A DNA stretch of 64,000 bases. It comes from Ginglymostoma cirratum (taxonomy: Eukaryota). A model generated the notes under the pieces. The model had not been told where the DNA came from, did not search any database, and was given only the letters and a program-made list of their open reading frames with translations. Positions 1-62,445 of this stretch are shown here, piece by piece. The stretch lies in assembly GCA_024137785.1 (NCBI GenBank), contig JAHRHZ010000274.1:13419811-13483810 (forward strand), read 5' to 3'. The position numbers and the translations under genes are program-made. Positions within the stretch are counted from its first letter, which is position 1, and each line of letters starts with the position of its first letter.

Positions 1-562
1 TATAACTCAAACCCGCCACTCCTGGCAACATTCTGGTAAATCTTCTATGAAAGCTCTCCAGCTTAATAATATCCTTCCTATTACAGGGCAACCAGAACTG
101 AACATAGTACTCCAGAAGAGGCCTCACTAAGTCCTGTACAACCTCAACATGACATTCCAACTCCTATATTCAAAGTCTGAGCAATGAAGGCAAGCATGCT
201 AAATGCCTCCTTTACCACTCTGTCTAGATGTGATGCAAACTTCAAAGAATTATGTACCTGAACCCCTAGGTCTCTCTGTTCTACAACACTACCCAAAGCC
301 CTATTTTTAATTGTATAAGTCCTGCCCTTGTATGTTTTACCAAATGCATACCTTGCATTTATCCAAATTAAACTCCAGCTGCCACTCCTCAGCCCATTCA
401 TCCAAATGATCAAGATTGCTTTGTAATCTTACATAACCTTCTTCATTGCCCACTATACCACCAATTTCGGTGTCATCCACAAACTTACTAATCATGCCTT
501 CCATATTCTCATCTAAAATATAAATGACAAACAAAAGTGGACCCAGCACCGATCCCTGTGGA
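1..562 (-). mobile_element. CR1 LINE ORF2 fragment (RT C-terminal region), frameshifted
   Basis: ORFs 337..549 and 144..413 give LGPLLFVIYI..ISKFVDDTEIGG..WAEEWQLEFNLDKCKV and LGSVVEQRDLGVQVHNSLK, typical CR1 RT motifs. The fragment runs off the window start. Confidence 0.95.
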
Positions 563-12460: not shown

Positions 12461-13496
12461 TGATTCACAGCTGTCAGACATACAGAGAATGAAGAAAGCC
12501 CTTTCTCATTTTCTGTAGGTGCAGTGGGACTTGACTGTTAGGATTTCTGGGGTAATTACTCTGGAGCAAAAATGTACCTTGTCATCAATGTCACAAAAGA
12601 GCTTCCTACCGCATTCAGGCAATTTCTTATTCTTTGCAGAGGTACTGTCACTGAATGAGCTTATCAACTTTGCTCTCCAGAGACAAACAATAGTAGAAGA
12701 ATTCAGTAATACCTGGACACAAGAAATACAAGTGTTTGCCCCAAGCCAAAAAATGAAAATTTCCATTCTACCTGAAGTTAATTCATAACTGTTTGTTTTG
12801 TTCACTTGTAAAACTCATTCAATTAAATAAAATCCTGTTGCTGTCCAGGAAGTTTCTCTCCCACACTGTTAAAATAAGTCACTACAGCTACAAAACACTT
12901 ACTCGCATTCCTATGACTCAGTAATTGGAATAGTGCAGCATTATTGTCATCAACCCAAAGTTAATCATCCCAAAATCTTACAAGTTTATCATTAAACTCC
13001 TTCATAGACACAGATCAAACCCACATGCCACGAGTTCAAAATCCAAACGATAAATACATATATCACACACCTCAAATCACAACTGTATTAAGCCCATCAT
13101 GCTGTGAGTATACTATATGCTATGTTTTACATAATTGTCCATTTGCATGCTCCAACATGTACAATGCATCATGGGGAACATTCAGCTTTCTTCCATAGCT
13201 GCCTTTATTTTGAAATTATTGAATTAGTCACTAATTTTAATGAGATCATTTTAAACTTCAGTAAGATTGCAAATTCAACAAACCTGTCATCTTATTGGCA
13301 TGTCCAAATGTCATAAATTTCTAAGAATCCCTTATAAATGGGAGATGTTAAAATCCTGCAGCAAATCTAATGTATGGTTTTGTGTTCAAACCACCATTAT
13401 GGGAGCAACAGAAGTGATTTTGGACATGAAACATTTTGCTACCAGTTTCTAAGTTGGGGTAATTTAATACACAAAAACTGTCCATTTTATAGTCTA

Positions 13497-13603
13497 AGAT
13501 AACAAGCATGGGGCTGGATGAACACAGCAGGTCAAGCAGCATCATAGGAGCAGGAAAACTTGACGTTTCGGGCCTAGACCCTTCATCAGAAAAAACTCTG
13601 ATA
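13497..13603 (-). mobile_element. Penelope-derived short insertion with intact hammerhead core and 15-bp TSD
   Basis: The minus strand reads ctgatgaagggtctaggcccgaaacgtc (13562-13589). Flanks are ccattttatagtcta (13482-13496) and ccattttattgtcta (13604-13618). Confidence 0.85.
13562..13589 (-). ncRNA. Minimal type I hammerhead ribozyme motif
   Basis: CUGAUGA core, an extra A, stem II GGGU-CUAG-GCCC, GAAAC and a GUC cleavage triplet. The palindromic ACGU stem III suggests a dimer-dependent ribozyme. Confidence 0.7.
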
Positions 13604-14577
13604 CCATTTTATTGTCTAGTTCTTTATTGGAGGGCCATTGCTACCACTGTTAAGACTGTGATAAAGGCAATCAGAAAATTAAACATAAATTACCTTTGGG
13701 CTGCCACATTTTCCAGTAAAAATTAATACGGGCTACGGCATTGAAGATGGAGAACTTTCAAAACATTACAGATATGTGCAAAAAGAAAAACCCTTTTCGT
13801 GGATTCCCAAAGTGTAAGCAAAGCTTGCTAAAGTGAAATGTGCTATATTGTTGGATTTGTTCAAGCTTGTCATAGCTCTGTGTAAGACCAAAGTAACTAG
13901 TGTGATGTAAAGCAACAGTCTCTATTAACTACATTTATAACAATCTATTGCACTTAAATTGAATATCAAATAAATTCTATATCAATGCAAACTTTCATAG
14001 AAAAGATATTCAAGAAAGCAAATCTACTCAAAAGTTAGCAACATAGCTATTGCTCATTGAAGCTTCCTTTATCCAACAATTATTAGACTGCTACAACTGT
14101 GCCCTTTCCTCCATGATAAGATCAGTGATACAACTGGTTTCCATAGACCTCAACGTCCAGCTTCATTCACAACTCTTCTAATAATGTTGCAACACAAGTA
14201 AACCAACAGCAGCCTCTAGATAACATCCAGTTTTAGTCTGAAGATTATGCATGTTCATTTTTAAATAAGTTCAAAATAAAGGCAGCCACCGAAGAGAGTT
14301 GAGTGTTCCCTGTGATGCGTTGTATATGTTGGAGCATGTAAATGGGCATTTATGTAAAACAAAGCATATGGTATACCCATAGCCTGATGGGCCTAATACA
14401 GTTGCGATTTAAGGTGTGCGATTTATATATATATAATTTATTTTATTGTTTGGATTTTGAACTCGTGGCATATGGCTTTGGTCTGAGTCTATGAAGGAGT
14501 TTAATGATTAACTTGTAAGATTTTGGGATGATTAACTTTGGGTTGGTGACAATAATGCTGCACTATTCCAATTACTG

Positions 14578-18315: not shown

Positions 18316-18559
18316 TCTCATTGTCTGTCGCTACCACAATTTTAACTTGTAGTTTCTCCTGATTCCCACAAATGGACTGTTTCTTCAATTTCATACTTAG
18401 GAATTTTGACTGATAAAGCAGAATGGTTTAGACCCATGCCCCATGCACCTAACGTGGGATTCGGCTATCATTGAAGAGAGGTGAGAAAAATCAAAGACTC
18501 CTTCTTACCTCAAAGTTACTAAATTGAATATTGTTGTAAGTTAGATTCTGAGAATAGGA

Positions 18560-18785
18560 CAGGGGAACAACACAGAGAATGCTTGAGAAGTTCAGCAGCC
18601 CGAGAAGCATCTGTGGAGAGAGAAACAGAGTTAACATTTTGAATCCAGTATGACTCCTTGTCAGTCTTATGGACTCGAAATGTTAACTCTGTTTGTCTCT
18701 CCACAGATGCTGTCAGACCTACAGAGTTCCTCCAGCATCCTCTTAGTTTGCTTCAGATTTGCATCATCCACAATATCTTGCTTTT
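18560..18785. mobile_element. Penelope-derived fold-back (hairpin) element, older subfamily
   Basis: gcatctgtggagagagaaacagagttaacattt (left) pairs with aaatgttaactctgtttgtctctccacagatgc (right). Degenerate flanking duplication taggacagggga / caggacaaaggga. Confidence 0.8.
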
Positions 18786-19060: not shown

Positions 19061-19254
19061 ATACTTTTCTTACCTGTAATTACATTGTAACAGTATTCTG
19101 ACTACAATTGCAAATCAGGAGCCTTTAGTTCTTAACATGTTTGAAGAACTACGTATAACCTTTATTGTATAAGTGAATAGTTCGGAAAGACATGTTAAAG
19201 TTGCATGACACTTCATACAGTTTTTGGATGAAGAATCAGGCAATTTTGCACAAG

Positions 19255-19400
19255 CAACAGACAAAACCAAAAATTGCTGGAGAAACTCAGCAGGTCTGGC
19301 CACGTCTGTGGAGAGAAAACACTATTAATGTTTCAAGTTCAGTGACCCTCCTTCAGAACTGTTTCAGATCTCTAGCATCTGCAATTCTTTGTTTTAGTTT
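19255..19400. mobile_element. Penelope-derived terminal-repeat element
   Basis: aaattgctggagaaactcagcaggtctggc..gtgaccctccttcagaact followed by inverted tail cagatctctagcatctgcaattctttg. Flanks ttttgcacaa / ttttgtacaa. Confidence 0.75.
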
Positions 19401-28190: not shown

Positions 28191-30764
28191 TAGGGTAAGG
28201 GGATAAGTAATTTTGCTAGTTGTATAGATTAACATTGTTCCTTACTTGGCAGGCAGCTCCTGGTCAACAATACCCATAGTAATGGCCAAGAGCATGCTCA
28301 GCACAATCTGTTTCGAAGGGTTTTAACATCAGTATTAAAAAATGCAGTGCTAACAGTATTTACCTGTTCTACAGAGACAGGATATTTATAAATTCCGTCA
28401 AATTAAATTCTAAAACATTTGTGAAATTTGACAATTCTGACGTTTAGTCTACTGTAGCAGTCTGCTATGCTACTTTATGCACTCAAGTATACAACCTTTG
28501 TAAGTGTCACTTGTTTTTAAACCAGAATGTTTCCCTGATGGTTACCATGGCAATGTGTTCTTTCAAGTGTTTAGTCTTGCGGTCCATGCCCCCATTCTCC
28601 CTTTGTAAGTAAAAAATTGCTTTAATCATTCATCTAGCAGAGTCTAGCCAATGCAACCATTGTACTTGGACTCGATGCTGCAAATGTATTACAATAATTA
28701 TTTTGCAAAGCTATTTGATTTTGTAGTACATGAACTTTTCTTGATTCTGTAGCTCTGAAAACATATGTCAAGCAATTACAGTTAGCAGGAGTGTACTGTT
28801 GAATAGTGCACAAGAAGCATGGGAAATGTGTTCACTTTACCTTGTTAGGACTCAGTGATATTGTCATATTTATGGACTGTTTAGTACATTGACAACCCCA
28901 GTTTTTGTGTCAAAATGTAAGCATCTCTAGTTGCTTTGCAAATCATGAATCACTTTTCAACATTATGTTCTGGCATTTAGGGTATAATTATATATAGCTA
29001 TTGTATGGCACAAGCTCAGAATATGTAAATGCAACAAAAGCACACCCAAATCACGCTATATTGCTCTTTGGCCTGGAATTATATCAAAATGCCAGTTTCT
29101 ACAGTTAACAATGATCCGAAAAGACCGTTATCTGTCTGCTTGTGTTAAAGAAGTGAAATGAAATGTTAGGTTTTCATCTTTGTGACACAAAACACGTATT
29201 AGGAATTCACACCATATCCAAAAATGTTCATTGACTGAATATAGTGGAGAGGAATTTAGCAGTGAATTCTGAAGTATATTTCTGGGTGTGAAACGCTAAA
29301 TTGAGAGTTCTGGAGATGGAAATTTAACCCCTAGCTTAAAGCAATCCCAATGGACTGTTTGAAGTGTGGTTGGCACTGTTGCTGTATAGTCTGAAGCTTA
29401 ACTATCCTTCACCTTCATATTTCTAATTGAAGGCAGGGACTTGGAGATTATTTGGAAAACACATGCAAATATTTTTTATTAGAGTTAGGAAAATGAGATG
29501 GGCGATGAATCCACTGGAACAGAGATTGAAAACTGTGCTATGGGTTTTGCTCTGAACTCCACAATAGCCAACCAGTCAACTGAGCTAACCAAGCCCCCAC
29601 TCCAATGTAACTTTTTAACTGGCTGCACGTATGATTCATCCAAAAATGTGGCAAAAATTGTGGCTCTAAATATGTGCAGGATATAGGAAACAGTATTGAT
29701 AATATTAATATTACCTGGATAAAATCATCAACTTTATTAACCTTCTTTTTCAAACTGAACCTTTTCTTTAAATTCCATAACATGTCCCCTTGGTTTGTAT
29801 CCAGTTGTACTACAAAGTCTTACAGATCAAGGTTGGTCTTGAAGAAATCCGTTGTTTCACATAATCTTATTGATTTATATCTAGTCCCAGCACTTTACCC
29901 TATAATCAGGGCGTGAAGCCTACAGTGTCGGATAAGGTAGAACAGGCCTTTTTACACTGGCGGCTCATATTGCAACAATTTCATGAGGCTGCTCAAAGAG
30001 TGAAGTTCCTGATTCTATCAAGGTGTTGTTTGAATGTAGGAAACTGAGAAAACTATTGAATGGCTCAAGCCCATCATTCTTATTTTACCCAACTAACCAT
30101 GAGCTTCAAATTAAAACTCGGGAAAATTAGACACAAACAAATTATACGTTTGAGTGAATTGCTTTGTCGACTATTTGAGAAGTTAAAACAGAATGTAGAT
30201 AAATTTACTTTGAAAGTTCCTATAAATGTGTAAGTTAAATTAAGAATGTAATATAGAATAATTTAAAAGATAACTTTTAAGAAGTCTTTTTATTGTCAAT
30301 CAAACCTAGAGCAGCAGGATGTGAGTACATCCGATGAGATGAACGTAGAGAGATTGATGGGTACAGGAGGGAAAGTGAGAAAGCTAGAGCTATGAACCAG
30401 AAAGGAGTCAATGAAGGTTTCAAAGAGCTCACACAGCAGGCAGCAGAGTAGATGGCAAAAATAATTGATGCAATGCATAAGAAAAAAAGAGACGCACAAT
30501 AATGCAAGAAGCCAAGACAGTTGATAGAAAAGGGCAATGTCATTGATATATGGACAAGGCACAAGGGATTCATCCACTTGCCTTTCAATACTTGAAATTT
30601 GTTGCATTTTTTTTTCAGGACACTATGGCAAACAAGGCCCTGTTAATACAAATGTGTTGGGAAACAAATCAAACATCACAGTATGAGATAGTAGGAACTT
30701 TTCTATTGGTCGTACCTAACTATGGAGATATCATCCTTTGCATATCTGCTTAGAGATGTTATCA

Positions 30765-32974: not shown

Positions 32975-33350
32975 TGAAAAAGAAATACTGCAGATGCTGA
33001 AAATCTGATAAAAACAGAAAATACAGCTAATGTAAAAGGTCAGGAAACACCTGTAGAGAAAGAAAGAGTTAACATTTATGGTTGATAACTAACCTTTTTT
33101 TCAGAACTAGAAAAAATCTAGAGAAAGAAATGGTTTTAATCAAGAAGAGGGGAGGGTGGAAAAACTCTAAAGAGAATATCTGTGGAAGGGAGAAGGCAAG
33201 AGAGATTAAATTAAATGAGGGATGATGGTACAAGACAGAAATGGGTGAACGGGATATTAGAAGAATCAAAAGATGGGTCTGAGGGAGTAGAAATGACCAA
33301 AGCAGAATTCGACCAAGCAGCTGTCTGAAAAATTGGGAACAATAATTATG
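32975..33350 (-). mobile_element. Penelope-like element 3' region (terminal repeat plus purine-rich adjacent body)
   Basis: gaaatactgcagatgctgaaaatctgataaaaacagaaaat..ctgtagagaaagaaagagttaacattt..ttcagaact followed by a purine-rich tract. Confidence 0.65.
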
Positions 33351-38030: not shown

Positions 38031-38269
38031 AAAAACTCAAAGAACTGTGGATGCTGTAAATCAGAAACAAAAAAAACACAGAAATTGCTGGAAAGGCTCA
38101 GCAGGTCTGGCAACACCTGTGGAGAGAAATCAGAGTTAATTTTTCATGTCCAGGGACCCTTCTTCACATCTCTGAGGAAGGGTCATTGAACCCAAAACGT
38201 TAACTCTGATTTCTCTCCACTGATGCTGCCGGACCTGCTGAGCCTTTCCAGCAATTTCCGTTTTTGTTC
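38031..38269. mobile_element. Penelope-derived fold-back element with decayed hammerhead cores and ~12-bp TSD
   Basis: Arms gaaattgctggaaaggctcagcaggtc.. / ..gacctgctgagcctttccagcaatttc. Plus-strand core ctgaggaagggtcattgaacccaaaacgtt (38172). TSD cagttcatacat (38019-38030) / cagatgatacat (38270-38281). Confidence 0.85.
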
Positions 38270-38789
38270 CAGATGATACATGTTACTGTGACCCACCGAC
38301 ATTTTTGTATTTATTAGTGAGTGAAAATCAGAAGCATTCTTCTGATAGTGAAACCAAACATGTGGAAAATGTTTTAGAATGCACAACTTCCACAGTGAAA
38401 TGATGCCACTGCTCTAGAATACAAAGCACTCAGCTCCACATTTCAACATCTATTTGTTGAATAAAGTCAGGCAGTAAACAATAGTGATTTTATTTTCATC
38501 TGAAACCTGGTAATACCGTAGGTCATAGGTCACAAGCTCCATCACTCTTGAAGCCAGATGTCATGTGTCCAATCAATGACATTCAGATCCCTGAAAAATG
38601 TATATTCCTCCCATGGCCAATTGTTCAGTTGTGGCAGAAATTAATGTGCATGCTGTATTATGAATAACACTCAGTATCTCAGTACATTTCATTGGTACTC
38701 CAGTTTCAAGGTTCAGAATAGTTTAAATTTTACTCTCATAGTAGCAAAACTTCAGTTGAATTATTATTACTTTGATTTTCATTCACGAA

Positions 38790-43770: not shown

Positions 43771-44016
43771 AGTTAAATTAAATATTTTTGTTCAAGTTGC
43801 ACAAATGTTTGCATAAGACTTACAAAAGTATTGCTCAAAGACTAATAATGTTCTCACACTGTTCACACAACTGATATGTATATTGATTGAAGGAAAAATC
43901 TTTCTATTGCAGAATTGTTTGGCACATAAAGATCACTGTGACCAATTAGCTAAAGAAAACAGTTAAAGAGTGATGATCTAAACTTTCAAAAAAGAAAAAG
44001 ACCAAGAATCATATTT

Positions 44017-44165
44017 GGGGATAGCAAGAACTACAGGAGTTGGAGCCAGAGATAACACCGTGTAGAGCTGGAGGAACACAGCAGGCCAGGCAGCATCAGA
44101 GGAGCAGGAAAGTTGACATTTTGGGTCGGGACCCTTCTTCATTTCTGAAGAAGGGTCCCAACCCA
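44017..44165. mobile_element. Penelope-derived element with partial fold-back and perfect 13-bp TSD
   Basis: TSD aagaatcatattt at 44004-44016 and 44166-44178. Centre gggtcgggacccttcttca-tt-tctgaagaagggtcccaaccc. Confidence 0.9.
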
Positions 44166-46664
44166 AAGAATCATATTTCCCTGATGAAATGACAAAGATC
44201 ATCTGCAGGAGGGGGTTGACCTTCCAAGTACGTCTGTAACTCAAAGTACAAAACAGGAATTTCCTACTTTCTCGTTCCTCAAAATTGACAAAATGGGCAT
44301 CAAAGCATGCAGGGGAAATAAATTCAACTTGTTTCATCCAATCAATCATATTTTGTTTCTCTGATCTACAAATGTTGGCTGACCTCTTGTGCTATCCTGC
44401 ACTTAGTTGACTTGTTGGCAACTATTTATAACCTTTCTCCCGCAATGGTTTTGTTGGAAAAGTGCAGATGATAGTATCTTGGGGACTCCATGAGAAATCA
44501 GGACAGCAATGTCATGGACATCAGAACAAACAGCTGGATTGGGTAAATCAGAAATTCCTATGTTGTACTCTGTGTTGCAAACTACTTGAAAGATCAACTC
44601 ATCCTGCAGGTGATCTCTGTCATTAACTGGGGAAAGATGATTCTTGGCCCCTTTCCTTTTTGAAAATCTAGGTCATCAATCATTAACTGTTATCTTCAGC
44701 TAATCATTCATTATGATTGTAAAGTTCTGAATATTTCTGCAACAGACAGGTGTTTTTCTCAATTAATATATATTTCAGTTGTGTGACCAGTGTGACAGCA
44801 CTATTAGTCTTTGTGTAAGATTTTTGTAAATATTCTGTACACTTTTCATTTTCAGTCTGCAAGGCTTGATTGTGTTGTTTGATGAGTAACAGCTGCACTT
44901 TTAGTTTTGTGATTTCACTCAGACCGTAGTACGTACCAATTCTTGTGGAGTTTTAATCTGTACATGCTCAACTTTAAGTTTTGACAAGGTATTCCAGTTC
45001 TCTGGAAGCTCAATAGTTTGATCTTGTAGGCTTTGCCCAAAGAGTTATTATGTCTCGCTCATGGGTTTCCCAGTCTTCAACTGCCATCTCTGTTGATTGA
45101 CAACTTCTGCACCTTGAATATTGGCATGATTCAATTTGAACTGAGGGATCACTTTTCTTTTCTCGATAATATTTAACCAGCCATTTGGAGGAGTTGTACC
45201 TGTTCTTAATAGACTATTTACAAGGATCGGAATTATTCTCGAAACGTGTCAAGTTGGCATCAAGCTGTGCATGATCTCAAGGTGAACGGTCATCTACTCT
45301 GCCTGAAGCTTTAATGATCCTGAATCTGTTTTGAAATTCTGAGACCAATTTCCTGTATCTCTGTTCTAACCGCATAATCCCAGAAATCTCAGATTCTGTG
45401 ATTACTTTACTACCTGTAGAAATTTTGAAACTACATTTGGAAGTGAACTAGTGCAAGATTTTGATCTTGCTTCCGAGCAATCATCTAATCTTTTACTCTG
45501 GGAGGAAATTTTTTATGTACATGTGAGTGCAGTACTGTAAAATAAGGAGACAGCTTTACTTTTTCTTCCCCTTCATCAAAACTGATTATCCTGAAATGAC
45601 TGACGCACCTCAAAAGAGTTAACAGAGTTCTCAGAAATGGGGCATCTGAAATCAAAGGTATAGGAAGTTCTAAGTCTCAGACGCCAGTAAATTAATAAAT
45701 TAAGGGATGGTTTCCTTCTTTGTGACTATATGCTGAAGGAATAAAATATGGGCCAGAATGTATCTGTTTGTTGGTCCCCTTCTTCTTTGGTTTCATTCTT
45801 TTCCTGCCATTTTCAGTTTCAGTTTCAGTTTTGAGAAAAATGAGAGGTCTGCATTCCCATCTTATAATGCTAGTGTTGGAGTGTTCATACTGAACAGTGA
45901 CCTTGGTGAACTAAGTCAAAGTCATAGTCATCAGTGCTTTGCTAGAAAATTTTAAGCTTAATAAATCTCTACATTTTATAAAAAACCATATAGATTAGGT
46001 ATGACATATGTGTAATCACCCTTCCATTGTAGTGAAATGTAGCATCCATTTAGCTTTTGACACTGAGTTTATACTTCCAAAGCCCTAAAGCTGAATGGAA
46101 GACACTCTGAGGATTCTTGACCTCAACTATGGCATAGCATCTGAAAAGACCAAAAAATCCTCCCCAGCATCCAATTTAATACTAGTTATTCTGCCATTTA
46201 ATATAATCTCTTCCTACCTGAAATTGTTCTACAGAAGAATGAAAATTTTGCTGTGTGTCTGTAACATCCCTGAGGAAGAGTTCATCCTGCCCCTTTGCAT
46301 CCCTTACTTCCAGGGCTAGCACAGACCTCGGTATCCTGGATTTATTACTCGATGTTCCCACTTTAGCTGTACCCTGGACACTCTCTTTGCAGTCCCAAAT
46401 ATTCTATCTTGATGTGGTCCATGCCTCTCCGCAATATCTTATTTACTGTAGCTGCATTTTCCACATACTCTGCTGCGGACTTTCTCCCACACTTTTAGAT
46501 CTTGTACGTAGTTTGTTGCCTAGATAAGCCTTGAAGTCCATCACTCACTGCTCCCTTCCATCAACAAGCTTCACTTTAAGTATTTCTCCACATCTTGGTT
46601 TGAATCAGTGCATGAGCCTCGTGATATTTTCCCATATCGTATGGTGTCTCCGCATTTCCTTTTG

Positions 46665-54095: not shown

Positions 54096-54400
54096 TGATA
54101 AAAATAGTTAAAAGCTGGTGTATCATCACTCTTACTTCAACTACACTCATTGAACCCAGGCCTTTCCTTTAATCGCTGAGACAAAATATATTAGTTCATG
54201 AATTGAAATTCTATCCTTCCAGTAATGAGTAATGTAAATCAATGATGAAATTTTTCAATGATTCTTCTGAGAAACAGTAACAGATACTGGAGAGGAATAT
54301 TAAAATTACCTAGAGTCCTGGCTTCATCAATCACAATCTTTTTTTGCATCCATTTACACAATTATTACTGTATCAGTGTGGCAAGAACTGTTCTATCACA

Positions 54401-54990
54401 GATAATAGGTACTGCAGATGCTGGAGAATCCGAGATAACAAGGTGTGGGGCTGGATGAACACAGCAAGCCAAGCAGCATCATAGGAGCAGGAAAGCTTGA
54501 CGTTTCGGGCCTAGACCCTTCATCAGAAATTTTCTGATGAAGGGNNNNNNNNNNNNNNNNNNNNNNNNNNNNNNNNNNNNNNNNNNNNNNNNNNNNNNNN
54601 NNNNNNNNNNNNNNNNNNNNNNNNNNNNNNNNNNNNNNNNNNNNNNNNNNNNNNNNNNNNNNNNNNNNNNNNNNNNNNNNNNNNNNNNNNNNNNNNNNNN
54701 NNNNNNNNNNNNNNNNNNNNNNNNNNNNNNNNNNNNNNNNNNNNNNNNNNNNNNNNNNNNNNNNNNNNNNNNNNNNNNNNNNNNNNNNNNNNNNNNNNNN
54801 NNNNNNNNNNNNNNNNNNNNNNNNNNNNNNNNNNNNNNNNNNNNNNNNNNNNNNNNNNNNNNNNNNNNNNNNNNNNNNNNNNNNNNNNNNNNNNNNNNNN
54901 NNNNNNNNNNNNNNNNNNNNNNNNNNNNNNNNNNNNNNNNNNNNCCTCTGATGCTGCCTGGGCTGCCGTGTTCCTCCAGCTCCACACTTT
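54401..54990. mobile_element. Penelope-derived fold-back element(s) spanning an assembly gap; intact minus-strand hammerhead core at 54499-54526
   Basis: Left arm ..gacgtttcgggcctagacccttcatcagaaattttctgatgaaggg then Ns; an inverted arm follows the gap. Confidence 0.85.
54545..54944. other. Assembly gap (400 N)
   Basis: Run of N. The ORFs 54479-55049 are artefacts of it. Confidence 1.
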
Positions 54991-56719
54991 GTTACATCTG
55001 CTTAAAATCAATGGTCATTTGCCTCATTTGTGAACTGATCAAAACTTGAAATTTTCAAATCTTTTCATGTTGGATCTATTCAATGTGTGAAGGTAGCTTT
55101 TATTAATATATTGCCACCCTGAGATTCCTGGCTTCTCCTTAACATTACACATTAACCCTGGCGCTAACCCTATTGCTGTAAATTTATACTCCCAATGCAA
55201 TGAGAGCAAACAATCTTTCTCCTGGTAATATAGATGGGAGCACCTAGCTTCTCAAAACTTTCCTGAAAACTTTGTTTCAAGCTATGATCTATGAGCACCC
55301 AGTCTCACATTGCTGCAAAATGGTTAAATTTAGTATGAGTTATATTCAGAGTAAAATTCTTCCACACCTGTCTGAGAAGTACCATGAACCCCAATCTCGG
55401 TTACAGAGTGTCTGATTTTACACTTTAAAGATCTTGGTTCAAGTTATATTATCGGAATTCATTGGAGATGAAGAGTGATGAATAATGTCCCAGCCTGACA
55501 CGCGAACCTTTTCAGATTTGATTGCTTTAGGAAGGTGCCATATAAAATAGCATCGTCTAGCCTGTGGCAACAAGATTGTAGATACCAAAAGACTCAACAC
55601 ATTGACAGTTGCAGGGAGATACAACTTAAAAATGCATAACAAGGTGATGATAGGTCATCAGATTATGCAAGTGGCATGTCTTCACCCCCAGTTCGTTTTG
55701 GAAACCAAGTTTGTTTTGATGCTGGTTCTATTATATGACAAACTGTCAATTATTTTGTACATAAATATATGTAACTTCCTCTTGAGTTACTTCCATGGGT
55801 GTAGCAACTTAAGCTCCTGCAGCCCTCATGTTTTCAATAGTAAGATATCAGCTGGTAGATAATTGTCCTTTACAGCTAAGATAAAATGTTCTGACGATTT
55901 TTTTCACTTAATGACACATTGAAATTATCAAATACTTCTTCTTGCAAATCGATTGCGCTCTTTGTAAAAGTGATTATCTGATTTTAACATTTCACATTGA
56001 GTCTGACACCATCCTGACTGGTGCAACCATAGCAACTGATGCCTCTGATCATCTTTGCTATGGTTGTGCATTGCAGTTGTTTAAATCCAAAAAAAAACTT
56101 CAATCATGTGAATTCTGACTTTGAATCCGAGGTGGCTATTGAACCACTGGACTGGAGGTTTGCTTTGGTTAGAAGATGGGCAGCTGGGAAAATTCATGCA
56201 GCAGTGTTGCCTGACATGTTACCTCAGTGGGATGTTTCTGGAGGTCAATTCTCAGTGAGGATGGTTTCCTGCCCAGTGGTGCTAGGCAGGCCATTTGGGG
56301 ACAGGCTAAGGAGGTTGCCTAGATTTTCATGACCAATAGCTATTCTGCTGGGGTACCAGTAAGTGGTTGACATCAATCACAACAATTAAGACCAGTAGAT
56401 CATCAAGGAGCCCATGTAAACTGCAACTACAGGCTGCCCTATCGTGGTGCTCCAAAATATCAGACACCAACCACTTCCTTTCCCCATGAATGAGCTGCAT
56501 AAATGCAAATGTTGGAGCCTAATCCACTCAATCCTTCATTCTGGGAAACTTCCATCAGTACCTTTGCATACCCTACTTGCTACTGTCATGGTGTTTGGAT
56601 CAAATGATCTGTTTCTGTTGCTCTACTGTATAATCCAATGATATTTCACATGTAAAAACTGTAGTTTCTCTCAGTAGCTCAGAAATATCAGACAGAGCAT
56701 GTGTGGCAGCTTTAAGGAG

Positions 56720-57494: not shown

Positions 57495-58949
57495 GAAAAC
57501 AAAAGTGAAACTTGGAAATAATGGTGTTGGTCGAAACTAAACATCCACATTAAGGGATGCAAGATAACGTCAAATCAATTCTGTAATTTCTACATTACAG
57601 TGGCTTTTCCAAAAGAATAAGTCATTTTTTTAAAGCTTCCACCTATGCGCACATGCAAAAAAATAGCTACGAGGCCAACGTCGAATTACTTTCCCTGGGC
57701 ACCCACTAACCTGGAAATGAATTGAAATAAATAACTAATACAAAAACAGGAGCTGGGAATCTGAAATAAGAACAATAAAAAAAAAGACTCAGCAGGTCAG
57801 ACAGTGTCAGTGACTTTTTACCTGATGTTTGCCCAGAAAGAGAAAACAATAAAATCAGAAAATGACACATATTAGTCCGACTCATCTTGTCTATTTCAAG
57901 AGGAGGTGCAGTTCATCTAATATTTTCCTTCCCAAATATTAATATCTTTTTACTGGTATTTCCCACTGTATTGCGTAATATTCTTGTTCTTGTTGTATTG
58001 CCAAAGAATGTTTACAGAATCTGCTGAGGAATGAAGGAAACGTTAACTTTATTTCAGAAATATCTTACTGTGGATTCATCTTGCCACAGGGATGCAAGAG
58101 AGAGTGAAATCATATGATATTGCATTGCTTCCTAAGGTGATGTATTCCATGTCTCCTTTTATAATACAATTGGACTTAACCCCTCAAACTATAATTTGGA
58201 GTGATTTTACAGAATAGGAACAATTTGTTAAGTTTGCAATGTTTGCTTTGGAGCCACTGTTGATGCCGAGGCAAGATCCTGGTTGTTTTTAGGAAATGTG
58301 TTCTGTGATTTTGGTCACAATTCTCAGAGGACTGGATAGTCACATGTTTATCCCTGCAGACTTTATAATGGATAACAGGATTTGTTATTAATAATATATG
58401 TTTCACCCAATGATTTTTTTTTTCCTTTTTTACATGGAACATTGTGTCACTCCTGGTGATATTTTAGGATATCAACTACTTGGATACTTTAAAGCTGAGA
58501 ATTGTTGTAACATCAAATTAAATTGCAACTACTGTCTGATTCAGCGTTAACCAGAACAATATCATAGGCTAAACTTATGCTGAAAGCTTCACAGACACGT
58601 CCATCTACTAACGGCCAAGAACCATTTTCCATACTACATGAAAAATGGTGTGCTGGATCTCACAGCTGCCATCTTTCAGTCATTAAATTTGAAACAATTT
58701 GATTGAAGAGGCAAATTTATCTTTTTGGAAATAATTGCCTGAGAGGTTATAGTAGAAACAAATTCACTTCCATTCAATGAGATTTAACCCCCACCACATG
58801 CTCCTGTGCAAGGTGGGAATGGTGCAGTTGAGAATGAGGAGGGAATGAAGGGTGAGAGTGAGTTGAGAGTGAGTAGGGAATTTTGCACCATTCCTACAGT
58901 GTTCCAGAGACACCATTTTAACCTATCTAAGAGAACTGTATACTCTGCA

Positions 58950-59168
58950 GAGATAGTAGGAACTGCAGATGCTGGAGAGTCTGAGATAACAACGTGTAGA
59001 GCTGGATGAACACCACAGGCCAAGCAGCATCAGAGAAGCAGGAAAGCTGACGTTTTGGGCCTAGACCCTTCTAATGAAGAAGGGTCTTGGCCCGAAATGT
59101 CAGCTTTCCTGCTCCTCTGATGCTGCTTGGCCTGCTGTGTTCATCCAGCTCTATATCTTGTTATCTCT
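58950..59168. mobile_element. Penelope-derived fold-back element with perfect 13-bp TSD
   Basis: About 90-bp inverted arms around cccttc-taatgaa-gaaggg. TSD tgtatactctgca at 58937-58949 and 59169-59181. Confidence 0.92.
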
Positions 59169-60250
59169 TGTATACTCTGCAATTTGGTTTTACTTTACAT
59201 GGAAATGATAGTATTGTAATGTCTGAAGTTCTGGGGCACACCAGTGGCTGAACCCTGGCAAAGTCATGGAGTGGCCAGTCGAGGTCAAGGTATGTTTAAA
59301 AAAGTAATTTGCAGAATTATTCTGAGCTAGGAAGAGCAGGGATGCTTCCCAGGGCTTCACAATGAGCCTATGAACATTTCAGCCCACCTTGCCTCTACTC
59401 TGTGTTAAAGTTAACTGCCAAATGCCCTTTGCAGCATTAACAATAAACATGCAGAGATCATTTCCATCCATTCTTACAGGTTCTCAACACTCAACCAAAG
59501 ATATCACTTTGGTTTAAATTTTGTTTGCAGGTTCCTATTGAATTCCTAGGAGGAGAAAAGAACAGTACAACTTCGAAATAATCAAAGTGTTCTTCCTTGA
59601 CTTGTATACCCATAAAGGGAGCTCCAGTTTGGACCAGTACACACACTTCTGAGCTAGTTTTCTTTCATGCATTTTCAATTAGCCTTAAATCTTTGTTAAA
59701 ATGGGAAACAATCTTTCAATACAGAGCCTAGGTTATTCAAATCAAGATAGAATATTTAGTTTTTCTGTAGCTAACAATGCACATCTGAAAACAGACTCAG
59801 AATCTGTGGTACCAAACATGCAGGTGATCTATAGAACAAAAGCTTGGGATGCCAGTCAAAAAGTATGAAAGCAAGGTTTCTGTCTTCCCTTTTAGTCAGA
59901 GAATTAAGGTTTAAATTTGCAGATTTTTCTGAACAGGCAATGTTTGGATTAATTGGACCCTGAAAACTGACAGAATAACGTGTGCAAAGTTAGAGAAAGG
60001 ACAATCTCAGTGCAGTGTGGCATGTTTAAGAGCAACTGGCAAAGCCCACATTGTGACTTCACTGTGTAAAGTATGGAATTAGGAAACACTGTAAATTATA
60101 TAAGAAATGAAGAAAATGCAACACATACTGTTGCAAAATTGTTTTGATCATGAATGTAAAAGTACATAGAATCATCACCACGCAACAATATGAGATTATC
60201 AGATGTGGGGAGAAAAAAATAATACAACGCATTTTCTCTTGCATTTGCAG

Positions 60251-60354
60251 GTATAATGGAAATCAGGTCAGTTAATGTTGGAGTAGTCGCAATCAAAGCG
60301 GTCAACACTGGCTTTTATTTAGCCATGAACAAGAAGGGAAAGCTATACGGCACG
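60251..60354 (+). CDS. fgf22: Internal (second coding) exon of an FGF7-subfamily fibroblast growth factor, most likely FGF22
   Basis: Acceptor cattttctcttgcatttgcag| and donor ACG|gtaagg bound exactly 104 bp (phase 1 to phase 0), the canonical size of the middle FGF exon. It translates to (x)[43 protein letters not shown] and TGFY match FGF22 better than FGF10 (EITSVEIG, SNYY) or FGF7 (EIRTVAVGIV, SEFY). The exon call is very secure; the paralog assignment is about 0.75. Confidence 0.93.
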
Positions 60355-61415: not shown

Positions 61416-61629
61416 TCTAGTGACATTTCTTTGGAACCGGCGGGTAAATCTTGGTTCAAGGAAGGCATTCCCGGAACAGCAGCAGGCATACCTAAAATTG
61501 AGGTGTATCAACCCGGTGAAGCTACAGCACCTGGCATCTTGCATACCAAACTACATAATTAACATGCAATATAGAGGACAAAGTGATCCCATAACCACCA
61601 GATTGCAGCTCTGTGATCCTGCCACATTG

Positions 61630-62445
61630 AAAAATGGCAGATGAAGTTCAATCTGGATAAATGGGAGGTATTGCATTTTGGTGCAACAAACAAGGTTAGG
61701 ACTTACACAATTAATGGTAGGGTCTTGGGTAGTGTTGTAGAACAGAGGGACCTTGAGGTGTATGTACATAATTCTTTGGAGTTTGCATCATGTATAGACA
61801 GAGTGGTTAAAAAGATGTTCGGCACCCTTGCCTTCATTGCTCAGTCCTTTGAGTATAGGAGTTGGGAAGTCATGTTGAGGTTGTACAGGCCATTGGCGAG
61901 GCCTCTTCTGGAAAACTGTGTCCAGTTCTGGTCTCCCAGTTATAGGAAGGATATTATCAAGCTAGAGAGGGTTCAGAAGAGATTTACCAGGATGTTGCCG
62001 GGTACAGAATGTTTGAGTTATAAAGAAACGCTGGATATGCTGGGACTTTTTCCACTGGAGCCTAGGAGGTTAAGAGGCAAACTGATAGAAATTTATAAAA
62101 TAATGAAAGGTATAGATAGAGGTAATGGTAGTTGTCTTTTCCCTAAGATGAAGGATTTCAAGACTAGGGGTCACATTTTTAAGGTGAGAGGAGAGAGACT
62201 GAAAAAAGACATAAGAGGTAAATTTTTTACACAGAGGGTGGTTTGTGTGTGGAATGAGATTCCTGATGAAGTGATGGATGCGGGTACAATTACTACAAAG
62301 ACATTTGAAAAAGTACATGAATAGGAAATGTTTACAGGGATATGGGCCAGGAGCAGGCTAGTGGGACTAGTTTAGTTTGGGATTATGTTCTGCATGGTCT
62401 GGTGGGACTGAAGGGTCAGTTTCTGTGCTATATGACTCTATGAGT
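61630..62445 (+). mobile_element. Young 5'-truncated CR1 LINE with an open ORF2 C-terminus (227 aa, 61641..62324)
   Basis: MKFNLDKWEVLHFG..EQRDLEV..CVQFWSPSYRKDIIKLERVQKRFTRMLPG..RGHIFKVRGE..FFTQRVVCVWNEIP; tail tatgactctatgagtc. The host LINE reads ..ctgccacat | ctaatcatgaatgg across it. Confidence 0.95.

Follow-up and report, generated by a model that had tools for sequence, protein, structure and literature searches.

A hairpin insertion in Ginglymostoma cirratum DNA that resembles paired, truncated ends of a Penelope-like element

Background

Insertions of endonuclease-bearing (EN+) Penelope-like elements (PLEs) display head-to-head inverted pLTRs, TSDs of 8-10 bp and a 31-bp tail on one arm, the first 22 codons being located within the pLTR plus the tail (PMC3846280). 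Similarly, an inverted, 5'-truncated PLE copy was described with a tail of 30-40 bp at one end, and the origin of the inverted repeats and of the one-sided tail was called undefined (PMC8557442). The minimal type I hammerheads of metazoan PLEs have one additional base ahead of G10.1, their 15.2-16.2 pair is palindromic, and hammerhead pairs on opposite strands were noted (PMC4209133). A purified PLE protein, PAc (Poseidon, Anolis carolinensis), cuts the two strands of the target and extends them; it initiates at two internal RNA sites that bound the tail, uses uncleaved RNA and is predicted to be a dimer (PMC11167929). Non-LTR retrozymes, which are likewise non-coding, hammerhead-bearing and PLE-derived with long TSDs, form head-to-tail arrays with circular RNA (PMC7229834; bioRxiv 10.64898/2026.07.22.740005).

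The locus described here is a shark insertion of PLE-like anatomy. A search of the open-access literature yielded no description of PLE hairpins in sharks, nor of an accumulation of 5' ends at the hammerhead. The insertion anatomy of PLEs is already known, and the coupled start sites and the 5' limit reported below are modest additions to it.

Methods

All positions are those of the window, i.e. the entire 64,000-nt stretch of DNA that was analysed. Within the arms, C3 of the CUGANGA box is numbered +1. The copies present in the window were collected by blastn, using arms cut from the window as the query, which resulted in 16 loci; a further 15-nt tail piece is located at 30685. The arm count leaves out 12446, whose alignment is weak and inconsistent, and 54945, whose 5' end falls in an N gap and whose subfamily is unlike that of 54400.

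The public runs best sharing sampled words, at 0.25 of the words, were regarded as originating from relatives. Contigs of four runs (two from organism A, one each from organisms B and C) were aligned on 58460-59659 at 80% likeness, with a flank-crossing threshold of 31 letters.

Results and discussion

Anatomy of the focal insertion

The focal insert of 219 bp is enclosed by a 13-nt direct repeat (58937-58949 and 59169-59181) that is 100% identical (13/13). This 13-mer occurs twice within the window and nowhere else in it, which bears out the perfect TSD of the initial annotation. When the same search was applied to random position pairs, a score of 13 was reached in 0/296 and a score of 12 in 1/296. 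The palindrome of about 220 bp with unequal arms was also correctly described: the arms 58983-59072 and 59078-59167 are complementary at 81 of 90 positions (9 differences), the fold has a z of -21.5 and none of 200 shuffles is equally stable. The left arm alone displays 33 extra nt at its outer end (58950-58982), and the annotation had missed that this extension corresponds to the known PLE tail. The sequence specific to the right arm amounts to 3 nt (TGA). Table 1 lists the features of this locus and of its relatives in the window.

Table 1. Coordinates of the focal insertion and of related inserts in the window
Feature	Positions	Strand	Remarks
Related insert	13482-13618	.	TSD of 15 bp with 1 mismatch; core intact in the short-end arm, which extends to -3; the other arm consists only of the final 8 tail nt
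Hairpin, second family	18551-18785	.	One arm to +1; tailed arm begins inside stem II (+11 to +16); TSD not significant
Insert, second family	19253-19400	.	Short-end arm to -3/-5; opposite arm of tail region only (+99 to +135)
Hairpin, second family	38031-38274	.	Tailed arm to +2, short arm from +1; TSD not significant
Related insert	44004-44178	.	Perfect 13-bp TSD; tailed arm to +2; opposite arm only from -3/-5 to about +23, short of the GUC site
Related insert	54391-54544	.	Core intact in the tailed arm, which reaches -4; the other arm begins at -3 and shows 14 nt ahead of the N gap
Left TSD copy, 13 bp	58937-58949	.	Last two bases (CA) also fit the long end of the family; contigs of relatives align out to 58948
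PLE tail, 33 nt, left arm only	58950-58982	-	Ends in TATCTC (sense), like the short end
27 open codons, from ATG downstream of hammerhead to tail end	58950-59030	-	Possible beginning of the parental ORF
Left arm, pLTR end, from hammerhead box +5 to short end	58983-59072	-	
Broken minimal hammerhead, left arm	59049-59072	-	CUGANGA absent, G12 changed; cleavage position between 59049 and 59048
Head-to-head junction, 2 bases (AA)	59073-59074	.	Match neither arm; family contigs of relatives read T,C
Right arm, pLTR end, from box +2 to short end, without tail	59075-59168	+	
Broken minimal hammerhead, right arm	59075-59101	+	C3 missing; cleavage position between 59101 and 59102
Right TSD copy, 13 bp	59169-59181	.	

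The inversion point had been placed at or just 5' of the CUGANGA box. The axis of the focal copy is in fact located inside the box, the left arm starting at +5 and the right arm at +2 with AA between them, and CUGANGA is therefore intact in neither arm. Comparison with Rfam gave 5 matches at E ≤ 1, all of them miRNA models far below the gathering score, and no hammerhead.

The hexamer TATCTC (sense) closes both putative RT start sites, 33 nt apart (58950-58955, 58983-58988 and 59162-59167). The termini of the insert, GAGATA...TATCTC, constitute a 6-bp inverted repeat with no longer terminal match. The shared hexamer gives the insert a false 6-bp TIR and may act as a start-site signal.

Assignment to Penelope-like elements

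From its sequence, the focal hairpin would represent the head-to-head, 5'-truncated pLTR ends of an EN+ PLE, a known kind of insertion. It shares with the described EN+ PLEs the head-to-head truncation, the tail at one end, a variable TSD and the presence of the first codons within the pLTR plus tail (PMC3846280, PMC8557442); it differs from them in that the shark inserts have no ORF between the arms and in TSDs of 13-15 rather than 8-10 bp. A minimal hammerhead in the pLTR, a one-end tail, an inverted truncated copy and a TSD that is variable and not universal are all found in the shark family. Membership is assigned on this anatomy because no RT or endonuclease partner was found: the insert contains no RT or GIY-YIG ORF, and none of the 4 candidates of an arm-peptide search was an RT-bearing protein. 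No full-length copy, in which direct partial-tandem pLTRs would flank an ORF, is present in the window, though a decayed PLE ORF may be. The single match of a further arm-peptide search, a 211-aa predicted protein of Rhincodon typus (XP_048472946.1), has no RT domain. Its first 27 residues match the arm peptide at 85%; this protein is an exonised copy, whose gene model takes its start codon from the element.

The intact shark cores share with the hammerheads of metazoan PLEs (Fig. S3 consensus of PMC4209133) the CUGANGAH motif, G10.1-C11.1, GAAA, the palindromic C/G and UH. They differ by a helix I of only 2-3 bp, both focal cores are broken, and the alignment in the available part of that work includes no shark. 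A full core is present in 2 of the 14 scored arms (13491L and 54400L), and stem II pairing is kept across the families. Since helix I is so short, hammerhead activity of this shark family appears doubtful.

MITEs and fold-back DNA transposons are short, palindromic and present in high copy number. The shark copies differ from these in their unequal arms, centre-side truncation, long and variable TSDs and the existence of one-armed copies. The arms of the focal insert differ by 33 nt, only 6 bp match at the termini and the significant TSDs of the window measure 13, 13 and 15 bp. Fixed termini with equal TIRs and a fixed short TSD are thus not found, and the preference of the initial annotation for retrotransposition over a classical MITE stands.

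Related inserts and arms in the window

The copies of the window can be sorted into at least two families with subfamilies. Seven inserts are two-armed (13497, 18551, 19253, 38031, 44017, 54400 and the focal copy) and their junctions are all different. Of the 22 arms counted, 8 begin further in. The other 14 reach the box; 13 of these stop between -5 and +6, and the remaining one (32975) probably continues upstream. The binomial probability of this clustering, 2e-9, is a rough value based on a hand count, a uniform null and paired arms taken as independent. No arm starts at the cleavage site (0/22, the nearest being at +34).

The claim of a single axis position in 38031, 44017 and 54400 holds for a common 10-nt zone but not for the exact points, which are +2/+1, +2/-3 to -5 and -4/-3, respectively. 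The stereotyped axis was also drawn without 13497-13603, 18551-18785 and 19253-19400, each of which has one arm that does not reach the box. The focal arms do extend to both sides of the GUC site, as had been stated, but the right arm of 44017 stops before it.

The primed (3') arm ends coincide with the borders of the 33-nt tail, which lie at about +94 and +127-130 relative to C3. Exactly one tail is present in 6/6 complete two-armed inserts, with a probability of 0.016 if each arm chose freely, and the other arm is at the short end in 5/6, the short end of arm 18551L being uncertain. In all complete two-armed inserts each arm holds bases that its partner lacks, and in 13497 and 19253 this applies to whole arms. 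For the 8-nt arm of 13497, which matches the end of the tail, the chance probability at any one place is 2e-5.

Significant TSDs were detected in 3 of the 14 loci searched, the others remaining within the chance range; these include the 10-bp repeat with 1 mismatch of the 19253 insert. A significant TSD is missing from 3/6 complete two-armed inserts and from 8/8 one-armed pieces.

The sole N gap of the window (400 N, 54545-54944) opens 14 nt into a hairpin arm, and the arm beyond it (54945-55000) belongs to another subfamily. As the arms flanking the gap differ in subfamily, the assembly may have been interrupted at, or between, hairpins of this kind.

Proposed insertion mechanism

The insertion was most probably made in trans by an endonuclease-bearing PLE through two primings, the cDNAs being joined head to head; the probability of this reading is estimated at roughly 0.7. 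Two primings at the tail ends are favored over a fold-back because each arm has private bases and because exactly one tail is found in every complete two-armed insert. The process can be summarized as follows. A PLE protein would first nick both target strands 13 nt apart, the distance being that of the observed TSD. Each 3' end would then prime RT on uncleaved pLTR RNA, one at the long (tail) site and the other at the short site 33 nt upstream; the end positions are those observed, and priming is proposed after the biochemistry of the anole PLE. Both cDNAs would proceed towards the RNA 5' end and halt either early or at the observed limit, about 3-5 nt upstream of C3. Their 3' ends would finally be trimmed and joined head to head with the few shared or untemplated bases seen at the junctions, presumably by a repair route. 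A tailed cDNA halting near the short site would produce an L1-type twin-priming inversion (13497, 19253), and one running on would produce a full hairpin (focal copy, 38031). The ribozyme edge would thereby be the place where cDNAs stop and join, and the primings would occur at the tail ends. In this scheme we infer the enzyme, the priming, the use of one RNA or two and the joining route.

Twin priming of L1, reportedly introduced by Ostertag and Kazazian in 2001, is said to involve two target ends that prime on the RNA and cDNAs that are joined to leave an inversion inside the TSD. The shark inserts differ in that both start sites are fixed and internal and in that the arms can overlap over 90 nt. 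The closest counterpart, likened here by anatomy, is PAc, where a hammerhead is likewise located about 95-130 nt upstream of two tail-bounding starts, the template is uncleaved and both strands are primed; the available account derives neither the inverted arm from two primings nor the 5' limit at the hammerhead (PMC11167929). The initial annotation had proposed a template switch or twin priming at the ribozyme. Twin priming is the better of these options, with priming relocated to the tail ends. Three points speak against it: the right arm of 44017, whose end at +23 coincides with neither start site, would require a third, internal priming; some inserts have no significant TSD; and self-priming on an antisense template was proposed by the authors who described the EN+ PLE insertions (PMC3846280).

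This last proposal belongs to an alternative in which the second arm is a copy of the first, either because a single cDNA folds back or switches template at the hammerhead or because antisense RNA self-primes at the palindrome (PMC3846280). The junctions of both arms do cluster at the box in 4/7 two-armed inserts, the right arm of 44017 (-3 to +23) resembles a short copy-back, and self-priming has the weight of a published proposal. On the other hand, 13497 and 19253 each have one arm of tail sequence absent from the partner, and private bases are found in each arm of 18551, 38031, 44017 and the focal copy. A snap-back copy cannot yield arms that each hold bases the other lacks, and such an origin is for this reason judged unlikely. 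In addition, self-annealing is poor for cDNA ends at -4 to +2 (-2.5 to -4.5 kcal/mol, compared to -8.8 at +100 to +109), and it was rejected as the cause of the axis given this weak pairing at the box.

The presence of sequence from both sides of the GUC site had been attributed to an RNA that was either uncleaved or re-ligated into a circle. A self-cleaved, re-ligated and retrozyme-like circle would indeed explain arms spanning the cleavage site; a circular form has been suggested for PLEs (PMC4209133), from which retrozymes are derived (bioRxiv 10.64898/2026.07.22.740005). Uncleaved RNA is nevertheless sufficient in vitro (PMC11167929), the circle is not needed and no evidence of it was found. 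A circle has no 5' limit, yet nearly all box-reaching arms stop at the box; helix I is of 2-3 bp and no arm starts at the cleavage site. Retrozymes are arranged head to tail, whereas the shark copies are dispersed, all of those in the window being single or head-to-head with no head-to-tail unit or array. The circular template is consequently regarded as very unlikely.

The 5' limit at the hammerhead edge

The twin-priming reading leaves the sharp 5' limit to be accounted for. Our best guess is that the limit at the box corresponds to the template's 5' end, i.e. to a transcription start. The start site was guessed from the motif YYANWYY, with A at -4 in both families, read against the initiator consensus. 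With a frequency of 0.013 per position the initiator motif is common, and its A is also able to form a pair within helix I.

The same PLE twin priming could also operate with a limit set by an RT stall or an RNA processing site within a longer transcript, a possibility that we hold to be clearly short of even. A longer parent exists, since the loose-end consensus of one run goes on upstream into a pyrimidine tract, and arm 32975 probably extends upstream as well. In the available text, transcription of the D. virilis element starts well upstream, and the 5' edge of helix I, 5 nt before C3, is where its intron terminates. Splicing does not fit the shark copies, and a splice junction was rejected as the cause of the limit: arms 19256L, 32975 and 61338 still contain the acceptor-side G of the AG-like site, and family A lacks an AG at this position. 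Moreover, an RT would presumably have already unwound the hammerhead on reaching the limit. In D. virilis the inverted repeats are of variable size (PMC2377424), in contrast to the accumulation of shark 5' ends at the hammerhead edge.

At 32975-33260 (-), a second-family arm follows a pyrimidine-rich stretch of about 170 nt, which closes with an acceptor-like AG located 2 nt upstream of the box. This segment is probably the longer parent pLTR, seen in one copy.

As a tentative proposal, to which we give less than even chances, the template would be a very abundant, non-autonomous shark PLE RNA, about 135 nt long, with its start at the 5' edge of the hammerhead; a PLE dimer would prime each molecule twice, once at either tail end. 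If this is true, a single event would account for both the inverted pLTR and the one-sided tail in all PLEs, and natural junctions deciding between twin priming and antisense self-priming would be present by the many thousands in shark genomes. The ORF-less stubs present PLE insertion as bare ends, whose junctions lend themselves to bulk counting. The coupling of a long with a short start in each insert, together with a sharp 5' limit, makes direct predictions for the in vitro PLE system. Such hairpins may also be mis-filed as MITEs or miRNA precursors.

The family in related organisms

Between 18,201 and 148,764 family contigs were placed per run, contigs not being equal to copies. Among the best 24 of 1178 loose-end rows, the ends are located at the long end (58948), near the short end (59151 and 59166-59167) and at the box (59072 and 59075); those at the box read CATTTC and fade into mixed sequence 5-8 nt upstream of it, and a similar fading is seen at the long end and near the short end. 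Among 15 of the 525 joints, several link an arm ending at 59070-59072 to an arm starting at 59110-59132, and others have both arms shortened. Contig joints labeled 'goes back' or 'opposite strands' were not accepted as tandem units, the intervening letters not being readable.

These data bear on a further alternative, in which the palindrome itself transposes, as a MITE-like DNA element or as a retro-copied hairpin master, and the junctions are inherited. The 6-bp inverted repeat shared by both ends, the size of the family and the contigs that agree on the two bases at 59073-59074 (46, 63, 17 and 103 across the four runs) could be taken in its favor. Either arm predicts those two bases, and the shared axis bases therefore say little on a hairpin master. 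All 7 junctions of the window differ from each other, and the axis is bridged, with at least 31 letters per side, by 10 of the 32 listed contig pieces, which are 0-9 nt shorter than the focal copy. With TSDs of 13-15 bp and arms cut from the centre rather than from the ends, a transposing palindrome is considered highly improbable.

Unique flank is continued into the arms by 4 contigs, with 22 and 9 letters in organism A (flanks 4-6.5% different) and 28 and 24 in organism C (7-10%), none of which reaches the flank-crossing threshold. Empty orthologous sites, proposed as a check in related sharks, were not seen in organisms A and C, organism B having no flank cover; the insert instead looks present up to 10% divergence. 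As judged from these sequences, the focal insertion is likely, though not proved, to be old and common to relatives up to 10% diverged. The notion that a perfect TSD denotes a young insertion was rejected, as the arms are 10% different and the insert is shared by relatives. The focal insertion is probably an old, dead and broken copy that has become fixed and is devoid of function.

In the loose-end consensuses of all four runs, every element end is A-rich before and T-rich behind, which possibly denotes a symmetric target preference or a consensus artefact. Scans of metagenome, prokaryote and viral contigs with the family pattern gave 0 matches.

Genomic surroundings

A 104-nt exon with AG/GT borders at 60251-60354 (+) encodes part of an FGF domain (Pfam PF00167, E 2e-11); no other exon of this gene was found by a motif scan of the window. 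The paralogue is presumably FGF10/22-like. The focal hairpin is probably located in the preceding intron, about 1.1 kb upstream of the exon, and the pre-mRNA would then carry a 90-bp duplex. Two similar ORF remnants at 61617-62324 (+) and 144-428 (-) have no Pfam match and are taken by us to be the C-terminal end of a CR1/L2-type LINE. At 58813-58897, 40 nt upstream of the TSD, a purine-rich stretch is enclosed by a distinct inverted repeat of 14 nt.
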